From: a bacterium
Lineage (GTDB): Bacteria > Patescibacteriota > Minisyncoccia > Phycocordibacterales > UBA5272
Direction: 5' to 3'
Assembly: GCA_043719155.1 (NCBI GenBank)
Contig: JAYSUJ010000024.1
Location: 3,424-67,423, forward strand
DNA length: 64,000 bases
Below, piece by piece: positions 3,440 through 33,626 of the stretch; the stretch's first letter is position 1; each line of letters opens with the position of its first letter. The notes below the pieces were generated by a model. That model saw nothing but the letters and a program-made list of their open reading frames with translations. It made no database searches and was not told where the DNA came from. The position numbers and the translations under genes were made by a program.

Positions 3440-3529
3440 CTTTTTTTCTGGTTTTTCTTTTTACATTTTACCACAAAAAAGACTCCCCCACGTTTTGCAA
3501 CGCGAGAGAGCCAGTCGTCCAAAGAGATC

Positions 3530-3814
3530 TTAGAAACGGTTTGTAATATGACCGTCGGGCTCGACAGAGACTTTCGTCCCAACCTTTGCCTGTTTTGGCC
3601 AAACAACGACCTTAGTCGTCGAACCGTCAGGGAAACGAAGAGTCACCTCTTCGCCCATGCAGCTCAGGCTCATCACCCGGCACTGCCTTTCCAGATCGTA
3701 AATCGGTCCTTGGACACTTTCAACCACTCCCTCCCGAGTCTTCACCTCCTGTCCGTTGGACGAGGTGGTGCCGACTGCGAGAAAGGCAACTACTGCGAGG
3801 ACATGACGAATCAT
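3530..3814 (-). CDS. Small secreted hypothetical protein (signal peptide) in a sharply GC-rich patch
   Basis: MIRHVLAVVAFLAVGTTSSNGQ... begins with a signal-peptide-like N-terminus. The region 3480-3830 is far more GC-rich than its flanks by eye. An alternative plus-strand ORF 3548..3841 lacks any signal. Confidence 0.35.
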   Translation of the reverse strand: MIRHVLAVVAFLAVGTTSSNGQEVKTREGVVESVQGPIYDLERQCRVMSLSCMGEEVTLRFPDGSTTKVVVWPKQAKVGTKVSVEPDGHITNRF

Positions 3815-3866: not shown

Positions 3867-5120
3867 TCATTTTGTCAAGCTCTTGTCCCCCTTCCCAGAA
3901 GGGGGACAAGAGTAGAGAAGAAGCGCAACACACAGGACGACAGATGCAAATATGGTAGAAATTTTTACCCCAAATCTTTCACTCATGAAACCAACGTACA
4001 AACCACCTATGGAGCCAGTACCAATAATTGCCATGGACCAAAGAGAAGTGACTAGTCCAAGCATCTTTTCTTTACTATTAAGCATAACTAAAGCATTTGC
4101 CGTATTACCCATCAAAATTCCCAAAAACCCAGTCAGTAAAACGAAAAGCAGAAAGAAAGGAAAAGTTAGAGGTAGGGCCAAACAACCGAAAACCATAATA
4201 AGCAGAAAGCCTAATTTTTTTACTTTAATTTGACTCACATTTCTGTCTTGGGCCCCGTATATACCACCCAACACACAGCCAACGCTATAAAAAGTAATAA
4301 TAGTAGCATAGGACAAGGCGTTGCCACTAAAAATTTGCTTGATGAAAATTGGTGCTAAAGTTTGAATTATTAAAATAAAAGTCCCAACAACCCCCAAAAG
4401 AAGTAAGGTATCCCTTACGACTAAATTTCGCCAAATTTCTTTTAAATTTTTTATTAAACTTTTTTCTTCTTTTTCTTTTTCCTTCTCTGTTTCTGAGTTT
4501 TTTTCTATTTGGTTAAATTCACTCTTATTCATTTTTAAAATTAGAAAAATAGCAGCTAAAAAAGAACAGGCATTTAGTAAGAAACACCAAGCTGCCCCAA
4601 ATGCTGCCAAAACTATGCCTGAAATAATTGGACCAATAATTCTACCTAAACCATTTATGGTTGAAAAAAGCGATATAGCATTTTTAGTTTCGGATTTTGG
4701 TATAAGCCTGTACCTTAAAGATTGACGAACTGGGGCATCAATAACACGCAGCATTCCAGCCCAAAGTGCACTTGCGTATAAGAAATAAATATTTAGACCA
4801 CCGGTAAACAGGAGGCAAGCAACAAAAAATGGCATCAGAAATTGCAGAAATTGCACAATTAAAACTGTTTTATACTTTGGCAAACTGTCCACAATGTGTC
4901 CTCCAAATATCCCAAACACCAAAAGTGGCAAAAATTGTAAGGCAGTTATGATTCCCAAGGTTTCAGCCGAGCCTGTAATTTCATAGGCTAGCCAATTTAA
5001 AGCAATTGCCTGAACCCAAGAACCGGTTATGGACACAAATTGGGCAGCTATATACAGTCTAAAATTTCTATACTTAAGTGAGGAGGTAATTTTTTGAAAA
5101 ATACTAGAAATTTTAAGCAT
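3867..5120 (-). CDS. MFS transporter, EntS/MFS_3-like
   Basis: 417 aa with about 12 predicted TM helices. Conserved N-terminal RNFRLYIAAQFVSITGSWVQAIALNWLAYEITGSA is typical of MFS_3 exporters. Confidence 0.65.
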   Translation of the reverse strand: MLKISSIFQKITSSLKYRNFRLYIAAQFVSITGSWVQAIALNWLAYEITGSAETLGIITALQFLPLLVFGIFGGHIVDSLPKYKTVLIVQFLQFLMPFFVACLLFTGGLNIYFLYASALWAGMLRVIDAPVRQSLRYRLIPKSETKNAISLFSTINGLGRIIGPIISGIVLAAFGAAWCFLLNACSFLAAIFLILKMNKSEFNQIEKNSETEKEKEKEEKSLIKNLKEIWRNLVVRDTLLLLGVVGTFILIIQTLAPIFIKQIFSGNALSYATIITFYSVGCVLGGIYGAQDRNVSQIKVKKLGFLLIMVFGCLALPLTFPFFLLFVLLTGFLGILMGNTANALVMLNSKEKMLGLVTSLWSMAIIGTGSIGGLYVGFMSERFGVKISTIFASVVLCVALLLYSCPPSGKGDKSLTK

Positions 5121-8316: not shown

Positions 8317-8925
8317 ATGTTACAATTTCAATATAAAATAAATATGTTAGAGATAATACACAACTTTGGATATACTGGATTGTTCGTAACCATATTTGCA
8401 GAAATTGGGGCTATGATGTTTTTCTTGCCTGGTGACACCCTCATCTTTGGGTCTGGAATGTTGGCTGAAACTGGTGCTATGCATTTTTTAGGAACTATCT
8501 TTTTGATTTTTACTTCGTCTGCCCTAGCTGGTCATTTTGGTTATTTTGTTGGGACAAAAATTGACAGAGAAACACTTATAAATAATAAGTATTACAAAAT
8601 CAAAGACGCCCACTTAGAACATACTGAAAAGTTTTTTGCAAAATATGGTGCTTTAGCCATTGTAGCATCTCGCTTTGTGCCCATAGTCAGAAATTTTATT
8701 TCCCAAATTTGTGGACTATTAAAATATAATAGAAGAAAGTTTTTCATTTACAATCTTATTGCTAGCTTTATTTGGCCGGCAATTACCGTTTCTTTGGGGT
8801 TTTATTTTGGTAAAATGTTCCCGAACTTAGTTGTGTACATGGAGTATTTTATGGTTATAATGATAGCCATCGTGGCCTTACCTTTTATTTTAGAGATGGG
8901 TAAAAAACTTTTTAGGTTTAAATAA
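8317..8925 (+). CDS. DedA/SNARE-associated family membrane protein
   Basis: FLPGDTLIFGSGMLAETG motif and a multi-TM profile typical of the DedA family. Confidence 0.55.
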   Translation: MLQFQYKINMLEIIHNFGYTGLFVTIFAEIGAMMFFLPGDTLIFGSGMLAETGAMHFLGTIFLIFTSSALAGHFGYFVGTKIDRETLINNKYYKIKDAHLEHTEKFFAKYGALAIVASRFVPIVRNFISQICGLLKYNRRKFFIYNLIASFIWPAITVSLGFYFGKMFPNLVVYMEYFMVIMIAIVALPFILEMGKKLFRFK

Positions 8926-8927
8926 AA

Positions 8928-10118
8928 CTACTTTTCTGCAGTAATACCTTCTATTTCCTCCTTTAATTTAGCAACCAAGGCTTCCATGTCGAGTTTTTGT
9001 ATGTACAGTTTATTCAAATTTTCAATAAGTTTTAGGACCAAATCTTTTCCAGCTATTTTTTCAGCACCTGAAGCGTCCCTTGACAAAGCCCCTGTGGAAC
9101 TATTCACTACAAAAAAATCATTGTTTGGTACGCCGTCGATGTACATTTCACTAGTTTTGGCTATTCTCCAAAAAGCATCACAGTTGCCGACCAAGATTTC
9201 CATTTTCCCGTTTTTATTTACAACTTTAAAGTCGATAATCAACCTCATACTTGCGGGTCTGTCGAAAAGTTCTGTATTTTTAGTTGCATCTGGTGGTGCG
9301 GATCGTATCAACTCTTCGACAACCAAATCCTCAATATCCACTTCTCTACCCCAAAGTCTGGAGTAGTGAGTAGTGATTTCCAATATTTTATTTCTCAGTC
9401 TAAATTCCAAAACATCTAACATAAAAACCTTATCTTCCTCGGTATCTGAAAATAACTCACCTTCATCACGTTTTATGTCTGGGAAAATATGTATACCTTC
9501 ACCTCTGGCTCCGTCCACTGGTTTTACTATCCAAAACCCAGATTCAGGTACAGTTTTTAAATTTAATTTACCAAAAGGTCCGACCAATTTTCTAGCAGAA
9601 TTTTCCAGAGGTGTAAACTTGGGATGATTGAGCTTGTTATCACAAAGGTCACGAATATAGGGTGGATTGGGATTGGCATGAAGCGGGTATGCAGCCTTGT
9701 CTAAAATATCACGGACATACTTTTGAACTCTAGGGAAAGCCTCTTCTGAAAAACCTGTCTCCATGTGACGCATTTCATATCTAGTAACAGGTTTGCCAGC
9801 GAGTTTTAAAGTTTCATCAAAAGCTCTGGCTTTATCTAAAACATCTGGGTAATCAGGGTTGTTACGCCCCCTTATCCTTGCTTTTATCCTATCAGCATAA
9901 CTCACCATGCCTTTAGGAATTTTTTCTTTACCAAAACCAGACGTTGAACCATTGGTTTCCACTATCCACCAATGACCGTACTGATCCATAAACATATCTA
10001 CACCTAGAGTGCCTACCCATTCTAAGTCATTTGCCTTCGTCTCTACTTTAGCTTTAAACTCACCCAGTAATTTACTGAACTGAGACTCTCCTGGCTTTGG
10101 CTCTTTTCCAATCATCAC
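8928..10118 (-). CDS. Hypothetical protein with an ATP-grasp-like (TTL-like) segment
   Basis: FWIVKPVDGARGEGIHIF resembles the ATP-grasp/TTL KP..G.RG.GI motif, and WWIVETNGS is a possible E.N metal site, though in atypical order. Overlaps the rluA-like gene by 4 nt, ATGA. Confidence 0.3.
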   Translation of the reverse strand: MMIGKEPKPGESQFSKLLGEFKAKVETKANDLEWVGTLGVDMFMDQYGHWWIVETNGSTSGFGKEKIPKGMVSYADRIKARIRGRNNPDYPDVLDKARAFDETLKLAGKPVTRYEMRHMETGFSEEAFPRVQKYVRDILDKAAYPLHANPNPPYIRDLCDNKLNHPKFTPLENSARKLVGPFGKLNLKTVPESGFWIVKPVDGARGEGIHIFPDIKRDEGELFSDTEEDKVFMLDVLEFRLRNKILEITTHYSRLWGREVDIEDLVVEELIRSAPPDATKNTELFDRPASMRLIIDFKVVNKNGKMEILVGNCDAFWRIAKTSEMYIDGVPNNDFFVVNSSTGALSRDASGAEKIAGKDLVLKLIENLNKLYIQKLDMEALVAKLKEEIEGITAEK

Positions 10119-10950: not shown

Positions 10951-12144
10951 TTATCCAAATAAAAAACTCCAAAAACTAGGAACAGACAAATCTAAGTCTT
11001 CTGGTAAGGTAAAAAACATGTTCCCTGCAAAATCTCTTTCTAGCTTTTGCCTACATCGGATATTATTTACAAAGGCAAAATCTGAACAGAGAGTTTTAGT
11101 TAAGTCTTTTTTTTCAAATTTTTCTTCATTTCTTAAAATATCATAGCTCAGTGAATACAGACAATGTACCTTGTACTCTAAACTGCTTTGATTCATACAA
11201 AACTTACGAGAAATAACAATTGGGGTCTTTCCCTTTTTACCAAAAATTTCCATAATAAATCTTCTATTACAAGCAAAGTGCTTTTTATCATCCCTATACA
11301 AGTTACAAAAATCTGAAATTTTCTGATAATTTTTTGCTAAAAAATTTGCGGAGCGGCTATTCACAAGCAAACAAGAATACTCTGCCAAGTCAGAGTTGTC
11401 CTGATATTTTTTACAATAATCTATACTAACTTTTTCTTTTAAATCGTCTACCACTTGAAAGTAGTCCATGAAAATTCCTGTGTGACAGGATAATAATTTA
11501 TCTCTGCTTTTAGAAATAATTTCACATGTTTTGATGGCCTCTGGTATGTCTTTGCTGTTTTGAAAAACAAAATGCCCCAACTCATGCATACCACTTATGT
11601 AAATGTTTCGCTTACCATTAAGTTCTCCCGTTTGAAATTGTTGAGCTAATTTTTCTATTAACTCATTTTGAAGCTTAGAACTTTCTATACCATTACCGAT
11701 AATGCCGTGTACATAACCATTGGCACAGATAAAACTAAAGTTATTTTTGTATGGGTCATACTCTAAGCTTTTGCTAGGACTTTTATTTACCAAATTGGCT
11801 TGATAGCCAATTTCATGTGATACAGAGTGACACGAAGCTTCGGTTATCTCGTGACTATCAAGTAAATAATTTAAATCTGTAAATAGATTGTCAAAAAAAA
11901 CTTGGTCAAATTTTTTAATAGCAATTTGCTTTTTGACCAGTTTTTTGGCACAATTTGTAAATTCCAAATTTGATAATTTACAGGCTTTGAAAAAGTTATT
12001 TGATAGATCTGCTTCTTTTAATTTTTCATCGACAACCTCTTCAATTTCAAAATCATTCACATTTGTATAAAAATTAACAGGCATAACAAAAAGGAAAAGG
12101 AAAGAGGTAAAGTAAAAAACAAAAACTAAAATCCAAAATTTCAT
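10951..12144 (-). CDS. Membrane-anchored hypothetical protein with an HExxH (zincin-like) motif
   Basis: GMHELGHFVF. Start re-assigned to the internal Met at 12144, because the first 21 codons of the tracked ORF are encoded by the vWA terminator hairpin. Confidence 0.35.
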   Translation of the reverse strand: MKFWILVFVFYFTSFLFLFVMPVNFYTNVNDFEIEEVVDEKLKEADLSNNFFKACKLSNLEFTNCAKKLVKKQIAIKKFDQVFFDNLFTDLNYLLDSHEITEASCHSVSHEIGYQANLVNKSPSKSLEYDPYKNNFSFICANGYVHGIIGNGIESSKLQNELIEKLAQQFQTGELNGKRNIYISGMHELGHFVFQNSKDIPEAIKTCEIISKSRDKLLSCHTGIFMDYFQVVDDLKEKVSIDYCKKYQDNSDLAEYSCLLVNSRSANFLAKNYQKISDFCNLYRDDKKHFACNRRFIMEIFGKKGKTPIVISRKFCMNQSSLEYKVHCLYSLSYDILRNEEKFEKKDLTKTLCSDFAFVNNIRCRQKLERDFAGNMFFTLPEDLDLSVPSFWSFLFG

Positions 12145-12164
12145 AATTTTATTTAGTTTAGCAT

Positions 12165-12204
12165 AATAAAAAAGTGGCCAGTTTCGCGAAGCGAAACTGG
12201 CCAC
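12165..12204 (-). terminator. Strong GC-rich intrinsic terminator of the vWA gene
   Basis: Perfect 14-bp stem gtggccagtttcgc-gaa-gcgaaactggccac, followed on the minus strand by a T-run. Confidence 0.7.
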
Positions 12205-12231
12205 CACTGACCCAACTTTAGCCCTTAAGCT

Positions 12232-13329
12232 TTAGTCGATGTCAAAATCGAACCCACCACCACTGTCGTTGCTTCCGCTGTCGGACGAGCCACCACCCCA
12301 AGAAGGAGTGCTGTCTTCGCTCGAGCTGTGCGAAGGTTGGGTGTAAGAACTATCAGCATCACTGCTGTCGTCACCACTGTTGCCATCCTGGAGAGCTTCC
12401 AGGTCGTCCTCATCATGGACGTCGCCGTCGGTTTCGAAACCGCCAGTCTGCTCGCCGTTGGCGTCCAATGAGCCCTTGGTAGGGTCAAAGTCCGCTGGCA
12501 AGAGAGCGATCTCCTGCTGGAGATCGGCAGGCAACGAGAACATGTCCGGGAGGGGTTCATCGAATCCGGACACATCCTCTTGGACAGCTTGTTCCCAGGT
12601 CTTGGAAACACCGTCCACACCCATGGCTTCGTTGCGGTCAGCTTCAGAGAAGCCGAGCGACGAAGCTTGGGCAGAGCCAGGCGCAAGAAGGTGATAAGCC
12701 AACCCGAGCCCAGCGGCGGCAACGAAGGCCATGGCTACAGGGTTGCTTCCGCCACCCTTGCCTTTGCCGAACCAGCTCGACTTTGCAGCCGGCTGATTGT
12801 TGCCTTGAACATGCACGTTCATCACGCGCTCCTTGGGGATACCCATCGGCTCAGCCTGTTGCCAGGCGTCGATGTTGGCCCCGAGGTAAATCACGATAGT
12901 TCCGGCTTTCTGTTTGCGCTCCACCAGGGCGCGCAAGGCAGAAAGCTGACTAAACTCGCCTTTCGAGGCGTTTTCGATACCGTCGGTAAAGAGCACCACG
13001 ACATAGTCGGTGTCCTGCTCGATGTTATCGTTCAGGGCAGCCGCCAAGTTGTCGTAGAGCGGAGTCAATGCCCGAGGCACGTACTCTTCGTATTTGAGGT
13101 CAGCGATCTCGCCACCGAGTCCTTGACGAAGGACATCGGTCCCCATGCTGTCAAAAGTGACGAGCCGGAGGTAGGCGGTCTTGCCACGGGAATCATTGCG
13201 CATCCGGCCGAGGTAGGCATTGCTGCCTTCCACCACCCTGCGCCGCCACGAATACATGGAGCCGGACTTGTCCGCGACAAAGCGAACTTCAAGCTTACGC
13301 TTCGCTGCTTTCGCTACGATTTGAGCCAT
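12232..13329 (-). CDS. von Willebrand factor A (vWA) domain protein with a TM segment and an acidic Ser/Asp/Gly-rich disordered tail; GC-rich foreign patch
   Basis: MIDAS motif FVADKSGSM...LFTDG. TM-like VAMAFVAAAGLGLAYHLL. C-terminus ...DSSDADSS...GGGSSDSGSNDSGGGFDFDID. Codon usage and GC are conspicuously unlike the flanks. Confidence 0.7.
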   Translation of the reverse strand: MAQIVAKAAKRKLEVRFVADKSGSMYSWRRRVVEGSNAYLGRMRNDSRGKTAYLRLVTFDSMGTDVLRQGLGGEIADLKYEEYVPRALTPLYDNLAAALNDNIEQDTDYVVVLFTDGIENASKGEFSQLSALRALVERKQKAGTIVIYLGANIDAWQQAEPMGIPKERVMNVHVQGNNQPAAKSSWFGKGKGGGSNPVAMAFVAAAGLGLAYHLLAPGSAQASSLGFSEADRNEAMGVDGVSKTWEQAVQEDVSGFDEPLPDMFSLPADLQQEIALLPADFDPTKGSLDANGEQTGGFETDGDVHDEDDLEALQDGNSGDDSSDADSSYTQPSHSSSEDSTPSWGGGSSDSGSNDSGGGFDFDID

Positions 13330-13440
13330 TTTTTTCCCTTTCTGAGGGGGTTAATCCTGAGCCTATTTCTCAGGATTTTTATATTATACAATATAAATTG
13401 TAATTTGTAAAAAAATACTTTAAAATAGTTTTTTTTTACT

Positions 13441-14466
13441 TTGTGGGTTATAATAAGTATTACAAAATTCATGTCCCAAAAAACTAATAGTTCTGTAATT
13501 TACGCCTTTTCCGGTAATTTATTCATAACTTTTTTGAAAACTTTAGGCTTCTTCATTTCTCTTTCTCCGTCACTCTTTAGTGAAGCTATTCACTCTCTGG
13601 CCGACACTGCCAACCAAGGTTTGTTATGGATAGGAGCAAAACGTTCCAGAAAAAAAGCTGACCTCAAACATGTTTATGGTTATGGTGCTGAGAAATTTTT
13701 CTGGGCTACAGTTTCAGCTTGTGGCATTTTCTTTTTGGGAGCAGGCATAACCATTTACCATGGTGTAGAATCTTTTTTACACCCAACAAGCTCAACCACA
13801 TCAGCTTGGGTTTACATAATTTTATTTGTTTCGTTTGTCGTAGAAGCCTTCACGCTTTATAAAGCCTATCAAGAAATATCTCAAGTTGGTGAAGATACTT
13901 TTCTAGAAAATTTAAAATACGCAGACCCTATTTCTATAGCTGTTTTTTACGAAGACACAGTTGCGGTACTGGGTATTATCGTAGCAACACTGTCAATTTA
14001 CCTAGCTAAAATTACAGGTAATCACTTATTTGATGCATTTGGGTCTATCATTATCGGTTGTCTTTTAGCCATAGTTGCGGTTTTACTTTTAAACATGAAT
14101 CGTCAATATCTACTTGGTCGTTCTGCTCCAACAGAAATTGAAGAAGGCATAAAAAAACTTTTACTTTCTGATAAACATGTAGAAAAAGTTTTAGATTTTA
14201 AATCTGAAGTTTTAGATATTGGAAAATATTTAATCAAGTGCGAAATAGAATTCAACGGCTATGCACTTGTTGGAGAAATATTTAAAACTGAGGACATGGA
14301 AGAAATATTTGAAGACGTGAAAGATGACTTCCAAGAATTCCAAAAATTTGTTATTTACCAAACAAATCAAGTTCCTAGAATGGTAGGCAGAGTTATAGAT
14401 GCATTAGAAAAAGAAATTAAACACAAATTTCCAAGTGTAGAACATATAGATTTAGAAATTAATTAG
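13441..14466 (+). CDS. Cation diffusion facilitator (CDF) family metal transporter
   Basis: Six-TM N-terminal domain with HSLADT... plus a cytoplasmic C-terminal domain, the typical CDF architecture. Confidence 0.65.
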   Translation: MWVIISITKFMSQKTNSSVIYAFSGNLFITFLKTLGFFISLSPSLFSEAIHSLADTANQGLLWIGAKRSRKKADLKHVYGYGAEKFFWATVSACGIFFLGAGITIYHGVESFLHPTSSTTSAWVYIILFVSFVVEAFTLYKAYQEISQVGEDTFLENLKYADPISIAVFYEDTVAVLGIIVATLSIYLAKITGNHLFDAFGSIIIGCLLAIVAVLLLNMNRQYLLGRSAPTEIEEGIKKLLLSDKHVEKVLDFKSEVLDIGKYLIKCEIEFNGYALVGEIFKTEDMEEIFEDVKDDFQEFQKFVIYQTNQVPRMVGRVIDALEKEIKHKFPSVEHIDLEIN

Positions 14467-14586
14467 CATATACTCTACATATGTCAGAAAAAATTATCTG
14501 GACCCCAGAGGAAGAGGAGCTTATATTGAAAACCTATCTATAAATTACCCGTCTACTTATATTCCATCATTTAATATATAATCGTA

Positions 14587-14979
14587 TTGTCCAATACGAA
14601 ACCAATGGAGAGAAACATGAGTACCATCCAAGCTTTCATTTTCCGCTTACCAGAAGAGGTTGAGGAAAGACTGAATACTGCCCTTCTGATTTGTGGAATT
14701 GCTGTAGATGAAAAACATAGACATGGAACTGGCCCACTTCACAGTGAAATTCCAGTTTCCAGCAGCTTTGTAACCGAACTATATCCAAAATCCAAGAACG
14801 GAAAGTTTAGTTCCCTGGTTCTAGTGGCAACAGTTGATGATTTGGAAAAAACAAAAACACTACTTGATCAAGCCTGTCTTTCACCCAAAAGTGAAGCATT
14901 GTACTTGCTTCTAGAAATAGAAGAAGAGTATTTGCAACTTCAAATCTGGGATAAGAAAGCTTGGGATAGCTTCAAATAA
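14587..14979 (+). CDS. Hypothetical protein
   Basis: 130-aa ORF with moderately higher GC, followed by a terminator. No recognisable motif. Confidence 0.3.
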   Translation: MSNTKPMERNMSTIQAFIFRLPEEVEERLNTALLICGIAVDEKHRHGTGPLHSEIPVSSSFVTELYPKSKNGKFSSLVLVATVDDLEKTKTLLDQACLSPKSEALYLLLEIEEEYLQLQIWDKKAWDSFK

Positions 14980-14986
14980 CCTAGAA

Positions 14987-15017
14987 CTGTTGACGTTCAT
15001 AGCGTCAGCAGTTTTTT
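14987..15017 (+). terminator. Intrinsic terminator
   Basis: ctgttgacg-ttcatag-cgtcagcag forms a 9-bp stem with one G.U pair, followed by tttttt. Confidence 0.6.
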
Positions 15018-15028
15018 CTTTAATTTAC

Positions 15029-15050
15029 TTGGGGTGCCCAATGGGAATTG
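15029..15050. repeat. 22-bp direct repeat, the att-like left boundary; duplicates the 3' end of tRNA-His
   Basis: ttggggtgcccaatgggaattg is identical to 33396-33417. Confidence 0.75.
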
Positions 15051-15443
15051 GTCACGCATAAAATTTGTATTCACAATTTTTTGCGCTACCCCGACTCACT
15101 CGTTTCGGCTCGCTTTGCTCACATCGAAACTTCGCTCCGTCTTTCAATTCCCCTAAAACATACAAACAATTTTAAAACCCCACAAAGGGGGTCTTAAAAT
15201 TGTCTGGGTATCTAACGGTCCAGGAAATGAACACCCTTATATTGGATTTCAACCGTATAGGGACTATATTATCTGGTATTTTTCAGAAAAGTAACAGTAG
15301 CAAACTTCAATAATGACCACTAATCTAAAATTGATTGTTGAGTCTTTTGGAATTAACGATTTCTCCGGTTTTTAACTTTAATTTTTTGTATTTTTCTTTC
15401 GTAAACTACATCTTATTTTCAATTAGATTTGTTGTTCTTTGGA

Positions 15444-15872
15444 TTATTTCAGCGACTCTTCAAAATTAGTTTTAATTTCTGGGTTAACTTTTCTCAATTC
15501 CAAAATAAAACCTTTCAAGTCTGAATCGACTAGAAAAAATGGATATATATCATATAAAAACCTACTGCCATCTTTTTTTCTCACTTCTATATCCTCTTTG
15601 AACAGAGCAGGTCTTTTTACAACCAATGATATATCTTGAATATTTATATTTCTCTTGAAGAAGACATAATCTCGTATCAAAAAGTTACTACTAATAATTA
15701 ACTTTATTTGATTAAAGTATAAATACAAGATTACAAATAATGCGATAAAATACAGTATGTTTGTATAGTCTACATCTGCACCAAAGAAAAAAGAAATTAA
15801 AGCGGGAAAGCAGACTATTGTGAATAGAACCATAAGTCTAATAATTAAAAAATTAAGTTTGTATACTTTCAT
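15444..15872 (-). CDS. Putative toxin immunity protein, a 2-TM membrane protein; paralog of the upstream gene
   Basis: 142 aa with two N-terminal TM helices plus a cytoplasmic domain. C-terminal GFILELRKVNPEIKTN parallels EFLEFVEELKKYNPDIKIN of the neighbour. Confidence 0.55.
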   Translation of the reverse strand: MKVYKLNFLIIRLMVLFTIVCFPALISFFFGADVDYTNILYFIALFVILYLYFNQIKLIISSNFLIRDYVFFKRNINIQDISLVVKRPALFKEDIEVRKKDGSRFLYDIYPFFLVDSDLKGFILELRKVNPEIKTNFEESLK

Positions 15873-15926
15873 ATTATTTATTTAAGAAGTTATTAGACTC
15901 TACCCAATACAACACATTTGGATTAC

Positions 15927-16388
15927 CTACCATATCATATACTTTGCAACCCAAGAACCCCAATTTACGTTAATTTTAATGTCTGGATTATATTTTTTGA
16001 GTTCTTCAACAAATTCCAGGAATTCATTTTTTGAAGAAAAATAATTTGAGATTTGAGGAATTAGTATTTTTCCATTTTTATCAACTAGATTTAGAAATAC
16101 AATTACTGGCAGGACTTTAATTTCAAAAGAGCCAATGTCTATTACTTCGACCAACCTATCCTTAAATCCCTTTTTCTTATAAATTATCAATCTATTTTCA
16201 ATATCAAATTGTAGGAAACTAAACTTTTGAATTACCCAAGTTAGTGACACTATAAACAAAAAGAAGCCCGAGAAATATTCAACGGCACTCTGAGATATAC
16301 TTAACATCCAAATTGAAAATATAAAACAAAGAAGATACAATGCCACAACTGAAAGCCTAATGGAAAACTTATTATTAAGTACCTTCAT
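15927..16388 (-). CDS. Putative toxin immunity protein, a 2-TM membrane protein, immediately downstream of the RHS toxin
   Basis: 153 aa. Starts 2 nt after the RHS stop codon and shares the same architecture as the 15444..15872 paralog. Confidence 0.55.
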   Translation of the reverse strand: MKVLNNKFSIRLSVVALYLLCFIFSIWMLSISQSAVEYFSGFFLFIVSLTWVIQKFSFLQFDIENRLIIYKKKGFKDRLVEVIDIGSFEIKVLPVIVFLNLVDKNGKILIPQISNYFSSKNEFLEFVEELKKYNPDIKINVNWGSWVAKYMIW

Positions 16389-16390
16389 AA

Positions 16391-19300
16391 TTATTTTTTA
16401 TTTGATTTAATTTCTTGTATTTGAAATAATCCCCAGTCTAAATAATTAACACTTCCTACATTTGTAATCTGGTTTGTTTTAATATTGTTTCCATTAAAGT
16501 AATTGTTCATTATTAGTCCAGGAATATTTTGTATTGTCTCTTTTCTAATTTCATTTTGTGTTGCTACGCTTGTGATTTGCGAAATTAATTTTTCTGCTGG
16601 TCTTCCTAGGGTTGGTCCAATTAATTTACCAGCAACTGCACCACCAAATGCTGTTGCAAAAGCATCGGTGGTAATACTATTAGTAGAAATATTTTTATCT
16701 AATAGTGAATTTCCAACAGTTGAATCTATAACAGCACTGCCAACTCCTCCACCAACTGAACCAACAATTAACACTCCAGTTGCACCAAGTCCAGCCGCAG
16801 TAGCACCAGCCGCAGTAGCCGCTGCTGCACCAACTACAGCCACCCCTTTCCCCCCAGAATACATATAATCACCAAATGTAGACAAACTTCCATTTTGATA
16901 ATCATTAATTCCTTGCACTGCAACACCTCCAATAAATCCAATTCCAACCCCAATACACATTGGGCATTTACCATCAGGGTCATATTTATGAATTGGGTCA
17001 TTTACTGCATAAGAATACCCATTTTGAAGTTGGGGATTTTCAAGAAATATTTTTTTGTCTTCTCCCTCATAATTCTTTGGGTCAGGAGAAATAAAGATTC
17101 CATAATTACTAGAATTATAACGAGCATTCATATAAATCAAATTATTTTCTTTGTCCATTTGTTGATTAGTATACCCTCTATTCCCATTCGTCACACCTTG
17201 TTTTTCAACATTCCCAAAGGCTTTGTAAGAGGACGTTGATATTTCTGTTCCAATAGTGAAATCTAAAATCTTTTCAATACTGTTCAAATGGTCCGTCACA
17301 ATAGTTTGTATGGCGAGAGTGGAAGTGGGAGTGTAAATAGTTGAGGTAGAAGTTACAATAGTTGGAACAGAAGTGGTGGAGGTAATCCAAGATACTGTAG
17401 TAGTGGATACATTTACATTGGTAGTGGTAGTTGCATATTTTAGATTCTTTAGAGTGAATAAGTAGGAATCTAAAATGTAATAGTTATCTATGCTTGGAGT
17501 AGAGGTAGCAATACTGGAATTAATGGAGAGGGTAATGTCAGGAGTTTTAGGAAGTAAAATAATTTGAGTAGACTGATTAAAGTATTTCATTGTGCCACTG
17601 GCAGTACCACCTATGGTAAATGTAATTCCTTTACTAATTACTCCAGTTCCCTCGGTGATACTAGTAGTGTAAGATTTGTTGTTCTTGGCTCCGGCGAAGT
17701 AGAGGGTTAGGGTTTGGGTGGCGGTGGTTAGGCCTGTTAATTTAATAATATGATTTGAAGAAGTTGCACCGTTTTTACCTACGAAGTAATTTATTGTATT
17801 TGGCGTAATGGTAGCCGAAGACATTATCATAGAAGTGGTGCCAATACCCTTAAACTCGTCCCATTGTAGAGAGTTAATAGTAGTTTCTCGTAAACCTACC
17901 CACAATGATTTAGATACTGTAGAAGTGGATACTTTGTAGGTGGGAACCGTAATTGTTGCAGTTGTGTAAACCGCTGTGGTTGTGGCTACTTGAATGTATT
18001 GAGTAGAAGTGGAAACTGTTTGCGAAATAATATCTTTCCAAATTCTGTCTATGTTTAATATCGGTTTATTTCCTAAAGTTATTTGATAACTTGTGGTTGA
18101 ACCGGTGTTTTGGATAGATTGGTTTGGGGTGAATAATCTACTTTTAATTGTGGAACTAGAAGTGGTAGCAGTTATTTGGTTATTGTTAATCACAAAACTC
18201 AAAACCCTATTTCCCTCTGTGTCATAATAGTATTTGGAAGTAGTAGAAATATTCCCATTTACTTTTTTAATCTCTTTTACTCTGTCCAAATTATTCCACA
18301 CAAAGTCACCAAGCATTGTAGAACTTGCCAATCTCCCTTTGTTATCCCAGTTTAAATTATCACTAATATTTTCTTTTGCAACTTTACTTGGTGTGTGTGC
18401 TAGAGTATTTGCATACTCATAGTTATTTCCAGTATTAGACAATATTTTCCCAGTTGGTGAATAACTAAAAGTTTCCTCTACTTTTTTCATAACTTTATCT
18501 TCTTTCTCTACTTGAGTTAATCGAGATAATTCGTCATAAGTATAAATTGTATTTTCAAAACGATTATCTTCATCACGCAAAATACTTTTAATACGAGAAA
18601 GTGTGTCATAAGAGTAAGAAGTATTTTGTGGAGATTTGAAGTCACCAGTAGTGAACATATTAATTGTTCCATCTTTAAGTAGATAATAATACTTGGCATT
18701 TTTCTTCAATTTATTTCCAACATATCTAATTTCTTTTTGATTTACAGTAAATGTATCTATGGTTGTGGAAGCAATATTAGAAGATGCCGCGATATTGATT
18801 TGTCCAAAGTTTGAAGAGTTGGAAACATTGAATATCGGGTCTGGACAATTTACTGAACCTAAATCTGTATTGGTAATTGATTTACAGAATACAGTGTTGG
18901 TATTTCTATCTAACTTGTCACTTGTTTTGTAACTACTTGTTGCATACTCTGACCAGTCACCATTTATGTCACGACTACGAGTAAAGATTTCATAATCTGT
19001 GTTGTAAGAGAATGGAAACTTATCTACTAAGTATGAGGTAGAGGCAATGGAAGTGGTTGCCACAGTTTCTAATTGAATGAAGTTAGAGGTTGAAGTTGAA
19101 TTAGTTTTAGCCCGCAAGTAAACTTCATTTTCTATGATTGCATCTTTTTCAATGTCAGTATTTGCAACTGAAATATTGGCAACTAATCCTTGCCCCTGTT
19201 TATTTATAACCAAACTTGAAATAACTGGCTTGGTATTCGAGGCATTGTATTGAAGAGTTAAACCGGCGTGTATTTTGTAAGCGTTCTCTGCTCCCGTATC

Positions 19301-22300
19301 ACTTCGGTAATACAACTCTTGAAAATTGTGTGAGAAAGACAATGTGTTTTTAAGTTCTGGAGTTGAAGTCGCCAAAGTTATTTGTGCATTGGTTGCAGAG
19401 TGACCTGTCAAGATACACACTCCAATGTATGCCCCTGTTCCATTTACATAATCTGCTAAATAATTATTATTTACGTCCACTTTTAACCAAGTATTAGTAG
19501 CAATAGTGTTAAAGAATATTTTATCAGAGTAGGCAGTACCAGTGGCACATTGGTTATATGTCTGTCCACTGTCTGGCCATACTGGAACTCCCATACTTCC
19601 GTTTCTTTTAAAGAGTTGAATGTAACTGTTTTCATCGTTTATTTGATTAACTTTTTCTTTAACAAAGAAATTGTAATAGGCGTCAACTAAAGATGAGGTA
19701 GCAAGACCAGAACTTTTGTTGGTTGAAAATACTAGACCAGAGTCCAAAGTATTTAATGTTAAATTAGCGGGTATTACTATTTCTTCTCCAATAGGATTAG
19801 TTGTTCCAAAGAATTGTAGCAAATCAAGTGAAGTATCTCTATCTTGTCTACGCATATAGGTAGTATTTCTAATAGCATCGATAAAACTTTGGGCTGGTGA
19901 ACTTGGATATAGTATATACCCACCGATGTTAATTCCATTACTTTGAATTGTTCCGTAATAACTTTCTACCCCTTGTCTTGCTCTTACTTGGGTTATTTTT
20001 ATCGCATTAGCATAGGGGTGTAAAGTTTTTACTACTGATACATTGGTATATGGGTTTGTTGAATAAATATACTCCCCACTTGTTTTACTTACTTGTATTA
20101 AGTTTTCACCAGGTAAACCTTTTTCTCTAACTACCGATGCCGTAGATGTTGCAATATTGGTTGGCAACCCTACATAGTTTATATTTCCAAAGTCATAGGA
20201 GTTTTTACCCCCTATAAATGAAATTGTGTTGGAAATACGATTTAGATTTTTATCGTCATAAGTATTTTGAGTTCGAAGTATTCCTCTGTCATAAGCAACA
20301 ATTTGACCCAGCACATTGTATTCTGGGTTTTCAAATACTTTAGTAGTAGTTGAATAAAAATCACCAAAGAAAATAGATTTTATTTTTCCTTTTGCTAATT
20401 CATTAGTTGTAGTCGATACCCCGTCACCAGTGGTGATAATATTTCCCAGTAAATCATAGACAAAATATTGGGTTGATTTTGGTGACCAGATACTATTGTT
20501 GGTAACAGTTTCAATCTTATCAACTTCACCACTTCCGTTGTATGAATATTTTTTAACAATTCCGTCAGATGAACTTGCCACACATAATTTACCTAATCCG
20601 TTTGTACAAGAGTCGTAAATATATTCATTCAGCAAGTTATTTGTAACAATAATAGTAGTCGTAGCCACTGTTGAAGTTCCAATAATTATGTAAGTGGTAG
20701 TTGCAAAAGAAACAACTTCTGTATCAGTTGCTTTTCTACCAAGTAAGTCAAATGTAGTTTTAACTTTGTCCCCATTTGTAAATATACTTTCCACAAAGTC
20801 GTTAATTTCTCCATAACTGGTATTGGTATATGATGTAGATGTCCCTTTATTAGTTAACTCGTCATAAATTTTTCTGTTAGAGAAATCATAGCCAATATTT
20901 CTAATTGCATTTTCAGAATCTAGTATATTTACTAGATTCCCTAAAATATCATAGGTATATTTAGTGTTGTAAACTACTCCACTGTTATTTTCCACCACTT
21001 CTTTTATCAGTCCGTCTTTGTCATACACAAACCCTGTTTGATGATTGTTTTTATCAAACACGATTTTACTTCTAGCCCCATAATTTGCTTTGTCTGTTCC
21101 AAGCACGGTTTTAGTTTCTATCACTCTTCCAAAACTATCACGCACATAAGTCTTGTAATTGTAAACTGGTAAAGTTATTCCGTCACTTCTCCCAAGTGTG
21201 TAAGTAGTGTAAGGTAAACTTTCTTTAACAACATTCCCAACTTCGTCGTAGAAAGTGTCAGATGTAGAGTAATTGTTATTTACAGTTTCTGTTTTTGTTT
21301 TGATTACTTTCCCAAAGCCGTCAAAGTAGAACACTGAACTTAAAGTATCAGTTGCAGTAAAAAACTTTTTAACTGTTACATCTGGGAAATTAGCATCACT
21401 GTAAACTCTTTCCTCTAACAAATTGTTATTTTTCCAAGTTTTAACAGTCCTACCAAAGCCGTCATACTCCACTCTGTTTTCCAAATTATTTTGGTCAACA
21501 CTACGCTTTACTTTACTTGTATTGTAATCGTAAACAAAAGTATTTATTTGTCCTAAAGCATTAGTAGTTTTGATTGGGAATAACTTTTGCGTGTCATATT
21601 CAATAGTTGTGGTTGCACCTCTACTGTTCACTGTCAGTGTCGGCAACCCGAACACTATATCGTAAACAGTTTTTTCACTTTGCTTGGTCGTTGTTCCAGT
21701 GTAAGTATCTTTTTGAGTAAGTAGTCCACTTGAAATGGTAGAATCTAAATTATTGTCATAGAAATAATTTTCTTTTGCAAGTAAGTTACCATTTACATCT
21801 TTCAAAGTTTTAGAAGTGGGTAAATACTTTTTAGTTTGGGTTTGGGAATTGTTGTAAGATATTTCCAAAACTTTTGTGTCAGCAATATTTGTATCTGTAA
21901 TTGTTTGTGAAGAAGTTGTCACATCTCCATAACTAATTTCCTTTACCTTATTTAAGTTATTATCAAACATATATTCACTTGCAGTCGTAAATACAGCCCC
22001 ATTATTTTGGTCCACTACAGACGTATTATTTCTAACTGGAACAATTGCTGTTGAAGAAGCAGTCAGGGGGTTAAAGATTTCAGAGTATGAAATCAAATCT
22101 CTTTTTTCTAAAGAATTATTTTTGTTAAAAGTTTCTTGTTTGTAAAGTTTTCCTGTCTTACTTGCACTATCTTTTATCTCATCTACACTGTCACCGTTTC
22201 CTTGGTGATAGTAAGAGATTGTTTTCAACGAGTTGACCTCTATTGTAGTAACTTTTCCAAATCCAGCAAGGGTATTTTCGAAGTTCCCCTCACGAATTAT

Positions 22301-24583
22301 GGAGGCATCTTCATAAATATATTCACGAGCGGAAATCATTCCAGTTCCGTCCTTACTAATTTCTTTTTTGAGTGTCCAAACTGGATAGCCAATTTTATTG
22401 GCTCTGGTGCCGTCTGTTTTTTTATATGAACTTGCAGGTGCATATTCAAAACTAGATTCACCGCCTAAATTGTTTTTAATTCCAGTAAGTAAATCGGCTT
22501 TCATTTTAGAAGCGGTCACAGAGAAAGTATTTGAGGTATTGGGAGAGCGGGCAATGTCAGGTAAACCGTCACCATTTAAGTCAGCCGAAAAAGCAATTTG
22601 GTATTGTATTTGTTCTGCCTCTGTAAAACCGTCAAAGTTAAAGTCGGTGTAGAGGTTATCGTAAAAAGACATTCCGTTAAAAATGTGCGAGTAATATGAA
22701 ATTGGGAAATTGTATTGTGCGGAAGAAGTAGCGTCCAAAAGCACCATATCTTTTCCATTATTTAGCCAAATTTTTTTGTAAGTGTTATCTACAAAGCCAT
22801 TTATACCGACTGCTGACTCGTTTAATTTATATACATTTATCAAATCATCCAGTCCATCATTGTTAATATCCAGATATACAAATGAAGCGTCTATCATTGC
22901 ATCTCTGTTTTGTGAGAACCAACCAGTTGCTTTTAAGTCTGGGACTCTATCTCCGTCGAGGTTAGCAATTTTAAAACCATTTGGATAACTTGGAAAGTTG
23001 GATTGTTCCCAGAATAATGAAGTTGTGGCATAAGTTCTTTCAGTTGAACTGGCTACAACAACTTGTGTGGTAGTTCCCACAACAACTGTTGAGGTTGAAG
23101 TTTTAATAGTATCCTTGTAATTTATTCCCTTTATTCCTGCTCCCAAAACATCTACATTTCCGTCACTGTCATAGTCATAGAAAAAGTTATTAACAGGTTG
23201 ATTTATATTTACATAAGAGTGAAATTGAGAGAGGAAAAATGGTATTTCGGCTGTTGGCATTTCTCGACAATCATAACCTGGTTGAGAGTTAGTTTGGGGA
23301 TTACAATTAGTAGTTTTGTCTAACAAAACTTTTTCAGTAAAGGTAAAATCTCCATCGTTTAGATAAACTTTTTTAACTACACGGTGATTATTGTAATAAT
23401 CTCCAAAGAAAGTTTGGCGAGAATATACCAGGTCATTAAAACCGTCACCATTTATGTCTACGATTCGGTCAAAGTTGTCTTTGGGAATACCCAATGTTTT
23501 AGTTTCTGTTTGTGGTTGAGAGTAAGTAAAAACAGTTTCTGGTAAAGTGGTTTGTGTTCCATTTTCACCAAATGCAGATTCGATGATACCAGCAAGTAAA
23601 CTTCTTTTACCATTTACACCAAGTGAATATCTAAAAGCAAAATTCTTGGTTTTATTTCCGTTTACAAATACCTCTGTTCCAAACATTCTTTTATTGTTCT
23701 TTATCAAGTATCCAGTTTGATAACTTTCTAGTTGGTCAGGACGATTTTCAAATGTAAAACGGACTTCGTAAATACCGGGCTGATTTAAGTGATTCGTATA
23801 GAAAATACTTTGTGGGTATACAAAATTATCGTCTTTAGAGTAAGTATATTTTATGGAGTTTCCAAATACGTCAACTACCTCGGTTAAATACCAAGTGTGG
23901 ATTTCAGAGGTTGAAGATGCAGAGTTTATTCTACTTTCAGTATTTCCTCCATAAACGTATTTCATACCAGAATTATCTTTAACTTCCCAAGTGTCACCAA
24001 CACGAGTGAACTCACTGCGACCTGTGTCATTTTTCTTTGGAACAAAGATTTGAGAGGAGGTAGTCTTAACTAATTCTCCGTAGGTGTTTGAGGTAAAGTT
24101 TTCGTCTGTGTAGAGTTTAATTATTCCATTCTTGTTTACCCTTTGTATGTATGGAAGTGATAGGTCAAAACCAAACCCTACCCAGTTTTGATTATTTTCG
24201 TTTTGAGAGTTGTAGTTCACCGATATATCCGGAGTCATTCCATTTCTTCCCTCTGGAACTTTCAATTTGTAGTTATATTGCAGTGAGCCAGTATTACCCT
24301 CGCTCTTTGGTTTGTTAGGTGAGTCAATAGTAACACCGCTTGAGCCAGTGGTAGAATAGTCATAAAAGACTGGGGCAGAGAAAACATTATTTACTCCCAC
24401 ACAACCAATTAAAATACCCATTAAAATTAAATTTTTTAATGGGTTGGGGAAACCACTTGGAAAACTACTAGACGATTCTTGTCTACGCATATTATTGTTA
24501 TTTTTATTAAAATTACTCACTTTTAATGACTTTACTCTCATAAAGATACCCACATAATACCATAATCTGTAATACTTAAGCAA
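16391..24583 (-). CDS. Giant RHS/YD-repeat polymorphic toxin (Tc-toxin TcB/TcC-like) with a glycine-zipper-rich C-terminal toxin domain
   Basis: Signal/TM near the N-terminus. SpvB/FG-GAP-like repeats [56 protein letters not shown]. Many YD repeats ([25 protein letters not shown]...). The RHS core ends with a DPxG motif (...[12 protein letters not shown]), followed by about 200 aa: [19 protein letters not shown]...[34 protein letters not shown]... Confidence 0.85.
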
Positions 24584-33476: not shown

Positions 33477-33626
33477 TTTTTTACACAGTCTTTAACACTT
33501 AAAGTGGATTCTGACATTTTAACACAGAAAAGTCTTTCTGGCTAATATTATTTTGAAAAAATTGGTATAAAAAAAGTGGGACCAAAAAGTCTGGCCCCAC
33601 CAATATTGCCATAGCTGAAAAAACAC

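Follow-up and report, generated by a model that had tools for sequence, protein, structure and literature searches.

A GC-rich vWA/MIDAS gene with its own terminator in a 35% GC Paceibacteria genome: a probable single-gene transfer

The closest described relatives of the protein considered here are the small vWA proteins of phrog_7371 (e.g., Jay2Jay A0A0A0RM46 and a protein of Xanthomonas phage XacN1), which match its N-terminal 170 residues, share its F-[ST]-x-x-[DE]-R motif behind the domain and include its best structural match. These proteins are 200–280 aa long, apparently soluble and often phage-encoded, whereas the present one has 365 aa and a chromosomal context, with a hydrophobic helix inserted before the motif and ~135 further residues that make up a module and an acidic tail. 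At E <= 1e-10 the matches run to more than 10,000 representative clusters, but the full architecture is found in only ~20. The same Rossmann-like vWA fold, with its DxSxS...T...D site in register, occurs in CMG2/ANTXR, TRAP and integrin alpha I; those, however, are proteins of eukaryotic extracellular adhesion, while the domain described here lacks a signal peptide and is predicted to reside in the cytoplasm.

TerY and BatA are likewise bacterial vWA proteins, some of them membrane-anchored, and a first-pass annotation of this DNA had pointed to TerY-like and BatA-like members of stress and defence modules. That link was not supported. The protein has no Pfam match to TerF (vWA-TerF-like, PF10138) or to Bat; the TM helices of BatA are N-terminal whereas the only helix here follows the domain; neither the PP2C phosphatase and Ser/Thr kinase of a TerY-P triad nor Bat, MoxR or BatB-D genes were seen, a Pfam scan of 29 window ORFs having turned up no MoxR, kinase or phosphatase partner; and PADLOC, run on the vWA gene and five neighbours, gave no match at E <= 0.1. 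The ChlD/CobT chelatases show weak similarity in the vWA part of TIGR02442 (E = 0.007; 15 bits against a cut-off of 779) and also combine vWA with an acidic low-complexity region, but the present protein is without their AAA+ module and chelatase partner genes.

With regard to gene movement, individually transferred genes, mostly exchanged between Patescibacteria, have been documented (Gios et al., 2025; PMC12455944). There, as here, a single gene of atypical composition lies among core genes, and most transfers remain within the phylum, as the present family is found only in Patescibacteria-like genomes. Nothing essential sets this locus apart from those cases, the notable points being a GC contrast of 23 points between gene and host and the possession of its own terminator. 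It is an ordinary case that leaves current understanding unchanged, horizontal gene transfer being documented in these bacteria and vWA proteins being common.

The gene was found in a 64-kb window (the whole stretch of DNA analysed) of a 35% GC Paceibacteria (candidate phyla radiation) genome, where a GC-rich stretch of ~1.2 kb occupies the divergent intergenic region between two native genes. The favoured reading, considered probable, is that an ORF was acquired horizontally together with its own GC-rich terminator (~12168–13350) from a higher-GC Paceibacteria donor, is expressed from the elements modelled here and encodes a membrane-tethered adaptor. The features are as follows.

12168–12204, minus strand: predicted intrinsic terminator of the vWA gene, hairpin 12174–12204 and U-tract 12173–12168
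12232–13329, minus strand: vWA coding sequence, 365 aa plus stop codon, GC 0.579, GC3 0.664
12235–12432, minus strand: acidic Ser/Asp/Gly-rich disordered tail, residues 300–365, from composition and pLDDT < 50
12433–12666, minus strand: conserved C-terminal module, residues ~222–299, with 24 invariant columns in alignment A2
12685–12741, minus strand: hydrophobic Ala/Gly-rich helix, residues 197–215, PVAMAFVAAAGLGLAYHLL, a predicted membrane helix
12802–13302, minus strand: vWA domain, residues ~10–176, from AF2, Foldseek, TRAP profile alignment and phrog_7371
13335–13340, minus strand: putative Shine-Dalgarno-like AAGGGA, read from the sequence 5 nt upstream of the ATG
13353–13377, minus strand: 9-bp stem-loop with perfect stem and 7-nt loop, at the predicted 5' end of the mRNA
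13383–13411, minus strand: sigma-70-like promoter match TTTACA-17-TATAAT, 11/12, a consensus match only

A protein identical to that of the window is on record (P0001). Structural modelling and profile alignment confirm the vWA fold with a complete MIDAS, both of which had been proposed from the letters of the sequence. The AF2 model reaches pLDDT 83–95 over residues 11–170 and, used as a Foldseek query, matches the solved vWA domains of CMG2, ANTXR1, ArnB, SpaC and integrin I domains at probability 1.0 over 175–190 columns. The MIDAS is formed by D20-x-S22-x-S24, T89 and T115-D116-G117, all fully or almost fully conserved in the 12 full-length homologues aligned with the protein: at position 22 S alternates with T, and D20, S24, T89 and D116 do not vary. 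In a profile alignment with the solved vWA domain of Plasmodium TRAP (E = 3e-4) these positions line up with its DGSGS, T and TDG. The nearest relatives of the domain are the small phage and bacterial vWA proteins of phrog_7371 (E = 4.8e-28, residues 10–176 on profile positions 4–165 of 204). It was the AF2 model, together with PHROGs and the family profile, that settled the fold; searched singly, the protein had no vWA match at E <= 1 in Pfam, and no usable one in Pfam, NCBIfam and PDB sequence searches together. Several short relatives match PF00092 or PF13519 above cut-off and, since it is these and not the 365-aa protein that do so, the link to Pfam is a transitive one.

Beyond the domain, a Gly/Lys linker leads to the hydrophobic helix, in agreement with the earlier mention of one TM-like segment: its 19-residue Kyte-Doolittle mean of 1.87 is the sole such peak of the protein (next best 0.58), its small residues are conserved among the homologues, AF2 builds a helix at 197–214, and the net charge is +5 before it and -33 after it. 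The C-terminal module that follows is marked by the motifs F-S/T-x-x-D-R-N, T-W-Q-D-A-V, F-D-E-P, L-P-x-D-F-D-P and G-S...D-G-x-Q. Searched alone, the module had no match in Pfam and only weak, probably chance ones among PDB sequences (YknZ ectodomain, E = 0.13), and a database search with its profile returned nothing, low-complexity words having probably saturated the candidate list. The tail, aptly described at the first pass as S/D/G-rich and ending GGGFDFDID, contains 16 S, 16 D and 10 G, with a net charge of -19; the last residue is D or E in 22 of 24 family members. A docked acidic C-terminal tip as ligand of the MIDAS was considered and found to be without support, AF2 giving the tail a pLDDT below 50. 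Taken together, vWA/MIDAS domain, hydrophobic helix, conserved module and acidic tail define a small unannotated protein family, tied to a very large group of uncharacterised phage vWA proteins.

With its parts ordered as vWA domain, Gly/Lys linker, Ala/Gly-rich helix, 80-residue module and acidic disordered tail, the product would be bitopic or membrane-associated, with the N-terminal vWA domain in the cytoplasm. One relative, P0152, has an extra N-terminal TM helix followed by RRKK, and its vWA domain should therefore be cytoplasmic. The MIDAS would bind Mg2+ or Mn2+ and engage a partner protein by one of its acidic side chains. The role most likely to follow from this build is that of an adaptor, tethered to the membrane and binding protein in a metal-dependent way, that works with no partner gene linked to it.

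The path of the chain after the helix bears directly on this topology. Modelled alone, the C-terminal module has a pLDDT of 64, against 73–94 when the vWA domain is present (overall pTM 0.73), and because AF2 is confident only in the latter case the models suggest that the module docks on the vWA domain, with which a simple N-in/C-out helix would not fit. It is conceivable, if on balance unlikely, that the hydrophobic helix does not cross the membrane at all, that the protein is cytoplasmic or peripheral and that the F-S/T-x-x-D-R module turns back onto the vWA domain to act as an intramolecular latch or as a pseudo-ligand of the MIDAS. Soluble relatives do carry the same motif at their C-termini: of 142 short relatives, 54 have F-[ST]-x-x-[DE]-R where shuffled tails would lead one to expect 2.6, a regex count with shuffled-tail controls used in place of an HMM, which was too short for significance, and F-S/T-x-x-D-R recurs in a phage ORF at locus L054. 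In the window protein it is represented by FSEADR (residues 227–232), just after the hydrophobic helix, and the Jay2Jay phage protein aligns over 234 columns, well past the vWA core. Against such a fold-back stand the helix itself, which is uniformly hydrophobic over 19 residues, flanked by Pro and in keeping with the positive-inside rule, and the fact that AF2 ignores membranes. A bitopic or membrane-associated product is the preferred reading, with its topology in doubt, and it poses a puzzle, the motif of the soluble relatives lying beyond a helix predicted to be a membrane helix, with the question this raises for regulation in this vWA subfamily.

The composition of the gene is far removed from that of its surroundings. 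The 64 window ORFs have a median GC of 0.351 and a median GC3 of 0.304, and background windows of 1.1 kb have a mean GC of 0.349 (sd 0.028, maximum 0.449), placing the vWA gene at z = 8.2. Segmentation with two change points delimits a GC-rich block at 12174–13318, with GC 0.58 inside and 0.30 and 0.32 in the flanks (log-likelihood gain 116). The RSCU of the gene correlates with that of native genes at r = -0.42 (+0.79 for a native control gene) and with that of genes from four high-GC Paceibacteria loci at +0.36 to +0.70, and GARP residues account for 0.29 of the vWA domain vs 0.17 (range 0.12–0.24) in native proteins. The cassette is confirmed as compositionally foreign to its host, and what had been judged by eye, a GC content far above the flanks and a codon usage unlike theirs, is sustained by the quantitative analysis. 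The extent proposed by eye, ~1.3 kb at 12165–13440, was too generous: the foreign block is real but narrower, because the change points fall at 12174 and 13318. The stretch 13378–13440 is AT-rich intergenic DNA that contains the promoter-like site.

An intrinsic cause of the high GC in a native gene, whether amino-acid composition or selection on codons or mRNA structure, was weighed as a rival account, and the protein is indeed rich in Gly, Ala, Asp and Ser, while the gene exceeds its flanks by 1.5–10 points in high-GC hosts too. It is nevertheless highly improbable, given that family members in two other low-GC genomes have a host-like GC3 of 0.27 and 0.34, while the window gene combines a GC3 of 0.66, against a host median of 0.30, with an RSCU anticorrelated with native genes. 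Across the family, gene GC usually tracks host GC, from 38% to 65%, as seen from the following values.

L006: gene GC 0.655, flank 0.64
L100: gene GC 0.639, flank 0.597
L002: gene GC 0.638, flank 0.541
L008: gene GC 0.614, flank 0.537
L009: gene GC 0.592, flank 0.495
L011: gene GC 0.381, flank 0.367
L099: gene GC 0.426, flank 0.362
Window vWA gene: gene GC 0.579, flank 0.348
L017: gene GC 0.522, flank ~0.36

As family gene GC follows the flanks, the gene is not intrinsically GC-rich, and the low-GC copies, by matching their hosts, already refute an intrinsic cause.

The family comprises ~20 clusters, found in Paceibacteria, and is known so far only from Paceibacteria genomes or Paceibacteria-like ones; two of its loci are recorded as Candidatus Paceibacteria and Paceibacterota, and homologues of the native neighbour gene bear the names Parcubacteria or Patescibacteria. 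The nearest recorded sequence, 64% identical, is that of L017, a 1.5-kb contig on which a GC-rich gene again stands in low-GC flanks and which resembles the window at the DNA level (70%) within the coding region only. It was rejected as the donor, being itself a GC-rich outlier in a low-GC host. A neighbour-joining tree, a simple distance-based one that carries no support values, pairs the window protein with P0002 as its sister, nested among copies from high-GC hosts, and puts the native low-GC copies (P0012 group) in another clade. Since the window copy and its closest relative are both GC-rich outliers that group with high-GC-host copies, the sequence comparison indicates transfer between Paceibacteria lineages, and the donor would most likely be a lineage of higher GC. 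The homology search turned up no sampled donor, its best match, at 64%, lying in a low-GC host. Atypical composition and codon usage are found here alongside a phylogenetic placement with compositionally different hosts, and the locus offers a clean, quantified case of a single gene moving between Paceibacteria lineages that differ widely in base composition. The earlier description of the gene as recently acquired holds in a relative sense only: GC3 is barely ameliorated (0.66, vs 0.69–0.81 in high-GC-host copies and 0.30 in the host), but no recorded sequence is closer than 64% identity.

The same contrast could arise from an assembly chimera or bin contamination, in which a high-GC fragment was misjoined into a low-GC contig. 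The window does come from a metagenome assembly, and an independent Logan assembly, SRR22198340, which matches window positions 12177–17203 with 0 mismatches, stops inside the palindromic terminator hairpin at 12177 and leaves one junction, that at 12174, without independent support. The junction with the native cation-efflux gene at 13471–14466 is, however, confirmed by that assembly, on that side, over 5 kb. Moreover, the insert is an intact ORF with start, stop and terminator that fits cleanly into the space separating two intact native genes, the window has four further islands built in the same way, and the closest homologue repeats the pattern of a GC-rich gene in low-GC flanks in a different sample. 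A chimera is on these grounds very unlikely. An empty site was sought through the nearest relatives of the cation-efflux gene and was not found among them; at 70–72% identity they are too distant for the comparison, and they are without the vWA gene, have other genes upstream and are not syntenic on that side.

As to the vehicle, delivery by a phage as a moron, or descent from a degraded mobile element, may be set beside direct exchange among Paceibacteria or uptake of naked DNA. Morons are classically built as an ORF with a terminator of its own, the vWA domain is closest to phrog_7371, short relatives are present in 158 phage records and 111 viral contigs, the 200-aa vWA protein of Streptomyces phage Jay2Jay gives the best structural match (TM-score 0.86 on target), and a serine recombinase lies 19 kb from the cassette, beside tRNA-His. 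On viral contigs, however, no full-length family member was found, only vWA-only proteins at <= 37% identity, the cassette is not flanked by phage genes (it lies among genes for RluA, an ATP-grasp protein, a cation-efflux transporter and an RHS-type protein), and the homologues sit among housekeeping genes, so that phage delivery or a mobile-element remnant is rated improbable. No integrase or transposase was present next to the cassette among the Pfam-scanned ORFs, and a search for flanking direct repeats or target-site duplications gave short repeats at chance level. The homologous loci share no conserved neighbour except in one syntenic pair of related genomes, in line with the first-pass view of a solo gene.

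The terminator supports transfer as a self-contained unit. Positions 12168–12204 have the predicted build of a rho-independent terminator, a GC-rich stem-loop with a U-tract after the stop codon: its arms (12174–12187 and 12191–12204) are 14 nt long and 100% complementary, with 9 G-C pairs and a 3-nt loop, exactly the perfect 14-bp stem reported earlier, and a T-run follows on the minus strand (tail TTTTTTATT), the whole lying 27 nt past the stop codon. At -25.3 kcal/mol it is the strongest terminator-like hairpin in the 64-kb window, and a 76-nt stretch around it folds at -30.5 kcal/mol (z = -4.1), with 0 of 200 shuffles folding as well. The first base of the stem coincides with the GC change point at 12174 and a strong terminator lies directly 3' of the gene at every homologous locus; most likely the GC-rich terminator travelled together with the vWA gene.

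The window has four other GC-rich single-gene islands with strong terminators. Together with the vWA gene this makes five, and their 3' ends carry five of the six strongest terminator hairpins in the window. Integron gene cassettes (ORF plus attC) were rejected as a model: the perfect stem is followed by a U-tract, no GTTRRRY partner or attC cores are visible, and the islands are scattered over the window and not arrayed. A speculative extension, to which little credence is given, would make the family a membrane-inserted derivative of the widespread phage-type vWA protein, in which latch, inserted helix and acidic tail, the last with its conserved hydrophobic-Asp C-terminus, form a new kind of membrane-coupled MIDAS switch, spread between CPR lineages as ORF-plus-terminator units, such units (five in 64 kb) being the main carriers of strong terminators here.

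At the other end of the gene, transcription would start from the sigma-70-like match, which lies in the AT-rich spacer and predicts a start near 13376, with the 9-bp hairpin directly downstream. This second hairpin, noted at the first pass on the 5' side of the cassette, is indeed present and, read on the plus strand, resembles a terminator. At L017 a hairpin likewise follows a TATAAT in the corresponding position, and the other homologous loci also show a promoter and then a leader hairpin; a 5'-terminal mRNA stem-loop is more likely than a mark of the cassette boundary. The mRNA would begin at this stem-loop, probably acting as a 5' stabiliser, and transcription would stop at the 14-bp hairpin and its U-tract. 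The imported unit carries a terminator of its own, and the promoter-like site that it appears to use lies in AT-rich DNA of host composition. Rfam searches of leader and terminator gave sub-threshold chance matches only.

The terminator had also been described as absorbed into the N-terminus of the neighbouring ORF. This applies to the mechanical longest ORF (10951–12207), whose GTG start lies inside the hairpin, and to that ORF only; read from the ATG at 12144, the neighbour is 397 aa long and begins with a hydrophobic stretch.

The gene under study is the only long open reading frame within 12165–13440, and its GC content (0.579) and GC3 (0.664) stand apart from the remainder of the window (GC 0.348) and from the medians of the 64 ORFs taken as genes (GC 0.351, GC3 0.304). 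It lies 8 sd out, since sliding 1.1-kb windows outside the cassette have a mean GC of 0.349 (sd 0.028, maximum 0.449). Two-change-point likelihood segmentation of 11000–14500 places the boundaries at 12174 and 13318, the GC being 0.58 between them and 0.30 and 0.32 on the two flanks. Relative synonymous codon usage is anticorrelated with that of twelve native genes (r = -0.42), while the neighbouring cation-efflux gene, serving as control, gives +0.79; for genes that flank the homologues in Paceibacteria loci of high GC, the correlation is +0.36 to +0.70. The amino acid make-up of the vWA domain is likewise high-GC-like, GARP residues accounting for 0.29 of it versus 0.17 in native proteins. 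The foreign composition proposed in the first-pass annotation is thus borne out quantitatively, although the block is somewhat narrower than the 12165–13440 given there.

Features of the cassette
12232–13329, minus strand: vWA gene, 365 aa
12174–12187 and 12191–12204, minus strand: arms of the terminator hairpin, 14 nt, perfectly complementary, 3-nt loop
13353–13377, minus-strand leader: second hairpin, perfect 9-bp stem
13411–13383, minus strand: promoter-like site TTTACA-17-TATAAT, 11/12 consensus match, best of the region

The full architecture of the protein (vWA domain, hydrophobic helix, conserved module and acidic tail) is confined to about 20 clusters at 50% identity, against more than 10,000 for the vWA domain alone. 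Family loci carrying organism names belong to Candidatus Paceibacteria and Paceibacterota, and the remaining ones have typical candidate-phyla-radiation contexts. No neighbour is conserved across the family loci, except in one syntenic pair from two related genomes (flavodoxin-like/gene/YchF). The GC of the gene normally follows that of its host, with two outliers, the window copy and its nearest relative, P0002 (64% identical).

GC of family genes and their hosts
L006: gene 0.655, host 0.64
L100: gene 0.639, host 0.597
L002: gene 0.638, host 0.541
L008: gene 0.614, host 0.537
L009: gene 0.592, host 0.495
L011: gene 0.381, host 0.367
L099: gene 0.426, host 0.362
Window copy (outlier): gene 0.579, surroundings 0.348
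P0002 (outlier; 1.5-kb contig from another sample): gene 0.522, surroundings about 0.36

An intrinsic GC-richness of the gene is ruled out by the low-GC family copies. In a distance tree the window copy and P0002 are sisters nested among copies of high-GC hosts, with native low-GC copies in a separate clade. Taken together, the GC outliers, this nesting and the low-GC copies elsewhere indicate transfer between Paceibacteria lineages, in which a higher-GC lineage would have been the donor and the gene would have passed into low-GC ones. Third-position identity between the window copy and P0002 at conserved residues is only 46%. Individual-gene transfer, mostly among Patescibacteria, has already been documented (PMC12455944), and the vWA gene is an ordinary case of it, carrying an uncharacterised variant of vWA protein.

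On one side of the insertion, the flank is clearly native by homology: hundreds of homologues of the cation-efflux gene are known in Parcubacteria/Patescibacteria (best 70–72% identity); these have differing upstream neighbours, the vWA gene never being among them. An independent Logan assembly reproduces 12177–17203 of the window exactly, its contig stopping inside the terminator hairpin, which confirms a physical link between the GC-rich gene and native DNA on the cation-efflux side. Among the ORFs compared with Pfam, no integrase or transposase adjoins the cassette. In related genomes (L012–L016, loci of cation-efflux relatives) the region around the orthologue is variable, containing EVE-domain, MmeI-type restriction-modification, Schlafen-like and GIY-YIG genes, and may be an accessory-gene hotspot.

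The terminator hairpin lies 27 nt past the stop codon and is followed on the gene's strand by TTTTTTATT; none of 200 shuffles folds as stably (z = -4.1). Called mechanically, the longest ORF of the downstream gene (10951–12207) has its GTG start inside this hairpin. The ATG at 12144 is a more plausible start, giving a protein that begins MKFWILVFVFYF and has a hydrophobic N-terminal segment. The description of the feature as a foreign vWA cassette that carries a terminator of its own was right.

The second hairpin is directly downstream of the promoter-like site, which puts the predicted transcript start at about 13376, the base of the 9-bp stem. Bacterial mRNAs can be shielded from 5'-end-dependent RNases by a stem-loop at the 5' terminus, as in ompA, and by this analogy the hairpin is read as a putative leader stabiliser, not a boundary mark. 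The P0002 locus (L017) has the same layout, TATAAT, hairpin (GTCAGG...CCTGAC), RBS and ATG, and its loop contains TAGG, resembling the window loop. In the remaining homologous loci, too, a leader hairpin comes after a promoter, and the gene has a strong terminator immediately 3' of it. Some leader hairpin occurs in every family locus examined; in the syntenic homologues L008 (about 9945–9980) and L009 (about 8775–8810) it is conserved, as GCGAGAGCGAATGATCATCCGATCAGTCGCTGCTC in the former and GCGAGTGCGATTGATCATCCGATCATTTGCTTCTC in the latter, and closely follows a TTGAC(G/A)...TATAAT promoter.

Four additional single-gene GC-rich islands occur in the window (GC 0.45–0.54, GC3 0.49–0.63 versus a host GC3 of 0.30), each flanked by native low-GC genes.

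Additional GC-rich islands
3530–3814, minus strand: 94-aa protein, N-terminus hydrophobic and resembling a signal peptide
33627–34343, minus strand: bestrophin-like membrane protein
58211–58402, plus strand: small lipoprotein-like ORF
58974–59672, minus strand: OMP-decarboxylase family

Among the terminator-like hairpins of the 64-kb window, five of the strongest six belong to GC-rich islands: each of the five islands, the vWA gene included, has one at its 3' end (12166–12215, 58930–58979, 58397–58446, 3475–3524 and 33568–33617; -16.6 to -25.3 kcal/mol). The sole native one, at 62521–62570, has an AT-rich stem. Imported genes of this genome seem to bring their own strong terminators, native terminators being mostly weak or AT-rich. 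An integron cassette was considered for the ORF-plus-hairpin build and rejected: the stem is perfect and has a U-tract, attC cores are lacking and the islands lie scattered over the window. Within the final 15 codons of a native MFS transporter ORF (3867–5120, minus strand) there is a GC-rich hairpin with a perfect 15-bp stem at 3880–3912 (CTCTTGTCCCCCTTC / GAAGGGGGACAAGAG, 3-nt loop, no U-tract). The bestrophin-like island is directly adjoined by a 582-aa large serine recombinase with a resolvase N-terminal domain (31728–33476, plus strand), whose end overlaps tRNA-His (33397–33471, minus strand); the two may mark the edge of an integrated element.

A Pfam search with the vWA protein returned no vWA model at E ≤ 1, and the fold is established by three other lines together. 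Residues 10–176 match phrog_7371 (unknown function) in PHROGs with E = 5e-28, making the protein a phrog_7371 relative by profile. An AlphaFold2 model from 12 homologues (pLDDT 75.8, pTM 0.73, vWA core above 83) retrieves solved vWA domains in Foldseek at probability 1.0 (among them CMG2, ANTXR1, ArnB, SpaC and integrin I domains). The family profile aligns with the Plasmodium TRAP vWA domain (E = 3e-4), its DRSGS, T and TDG in register with DGSGS, T and TDG; D20, S24, T89 and D116 are invariant across the family. By fold and motif, then, this is a member of the vWA/MIDAS superfamily. The TerY-like and BatA-like affinities suggested earlier do not hold, as the signature domains of both and the N-terminal TM arrangement of BatA are absent, and so are their partners among the 29 window ORFs compared with Pfam; nor is the stress/defence framing supported, no PADLOC defence model having matched the gene or five neighbours. 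Similarity to chelatase vWA domains is weak and far below threshold.

The single hydrophobic segment (residues 197–215, Kyte-Doolittle 1.87) separates a net charge of +5 on its N-terminal side from -33 on its C-terminal side. The vWA domain is predicted to be cytoplasmic, since the window protein lacks a signal peptide and, in one family member, RRKK comes right after an additional TM helix at the N-terminus. Past the hydrophobic helix lies a module of about 80 residues that is strongly conserved (24 invariant columns) and has no counterpart in Pfam or PDB, and then a 66-residue Ser/Asp/Gly tail. The C-terminal residue is Asp or Glu in 22 of 24 family members, usually right after a hydrophobic residue. 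In P0288 (621 aa; sharing a 90% cluster with P0010) an additional 240-aa C-terminal extension replaces the final residues of the acidic tail, which may reflect a genuine fusion, or the gene call may have read through.

Short vWA-domain relatives (about 30% identity, 200–280 aa) are present in 158 phage records and on 111 viral contigs, among which there is no full-length family member. In structure, the model as a whole is matched best by a protein of this type, a 200-aa Streptomyces phage vWA protein (TM-score 0.86 on target, 234 aligned columns). Near the C-terminus, at a median of 20 residues from it, 54 of 142 short relatives carry F-[ST]-x-x-[DE]-R (shuffling the tails gives an expectation of 2.6), a phage ORF in locus L054 being one example; the window protein has the same motif, FSEADR (residues 227–232), in its post-helix module just past the helix. 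AlphaFold2 gives a confident model of this module only together with the vWA domain (pLDDT 73–94; alone 64, pTM 0.32). Both observations favour an alternative we hold possible but rather unlikely, in which the motif is docked on the vWA domain of the same protein and the helix does not cross the membrane; with such docking, the helix could not be a simple N-in/C-out anchor. A membrane-coupled MIDAS latch descended from a phage-type vWA protein is more improbable still. Two short relatives, Streptomyces phage Tomas gene 103 (L108) and Pseudomonas phage phiK7A1 gene 043c (L109), neighbour tRNA genes, nucleotidyltransferase, tRNA adenosine deaminase and RNA and DNA ligases, which could point to a function of the subfamily connected with RNA or tRNA.

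Elsewhere in the window, a 2730-aa RHS/YD-repeat-like protein (16391–24583, minus strand) has two small hydrophobic proteins after it, one of 153 aa (15927–16388, minus strand) and one of 142 aa (15444–15872, minus strand), neither with a Pfam or PADLOC match; the arrangement looks like a toxin with immunity-like genes. A LOOT RNA (Rfam RF03000) lies at 29268–29385 on the minus strand, scoring 74 bits against a gathering score of 46.
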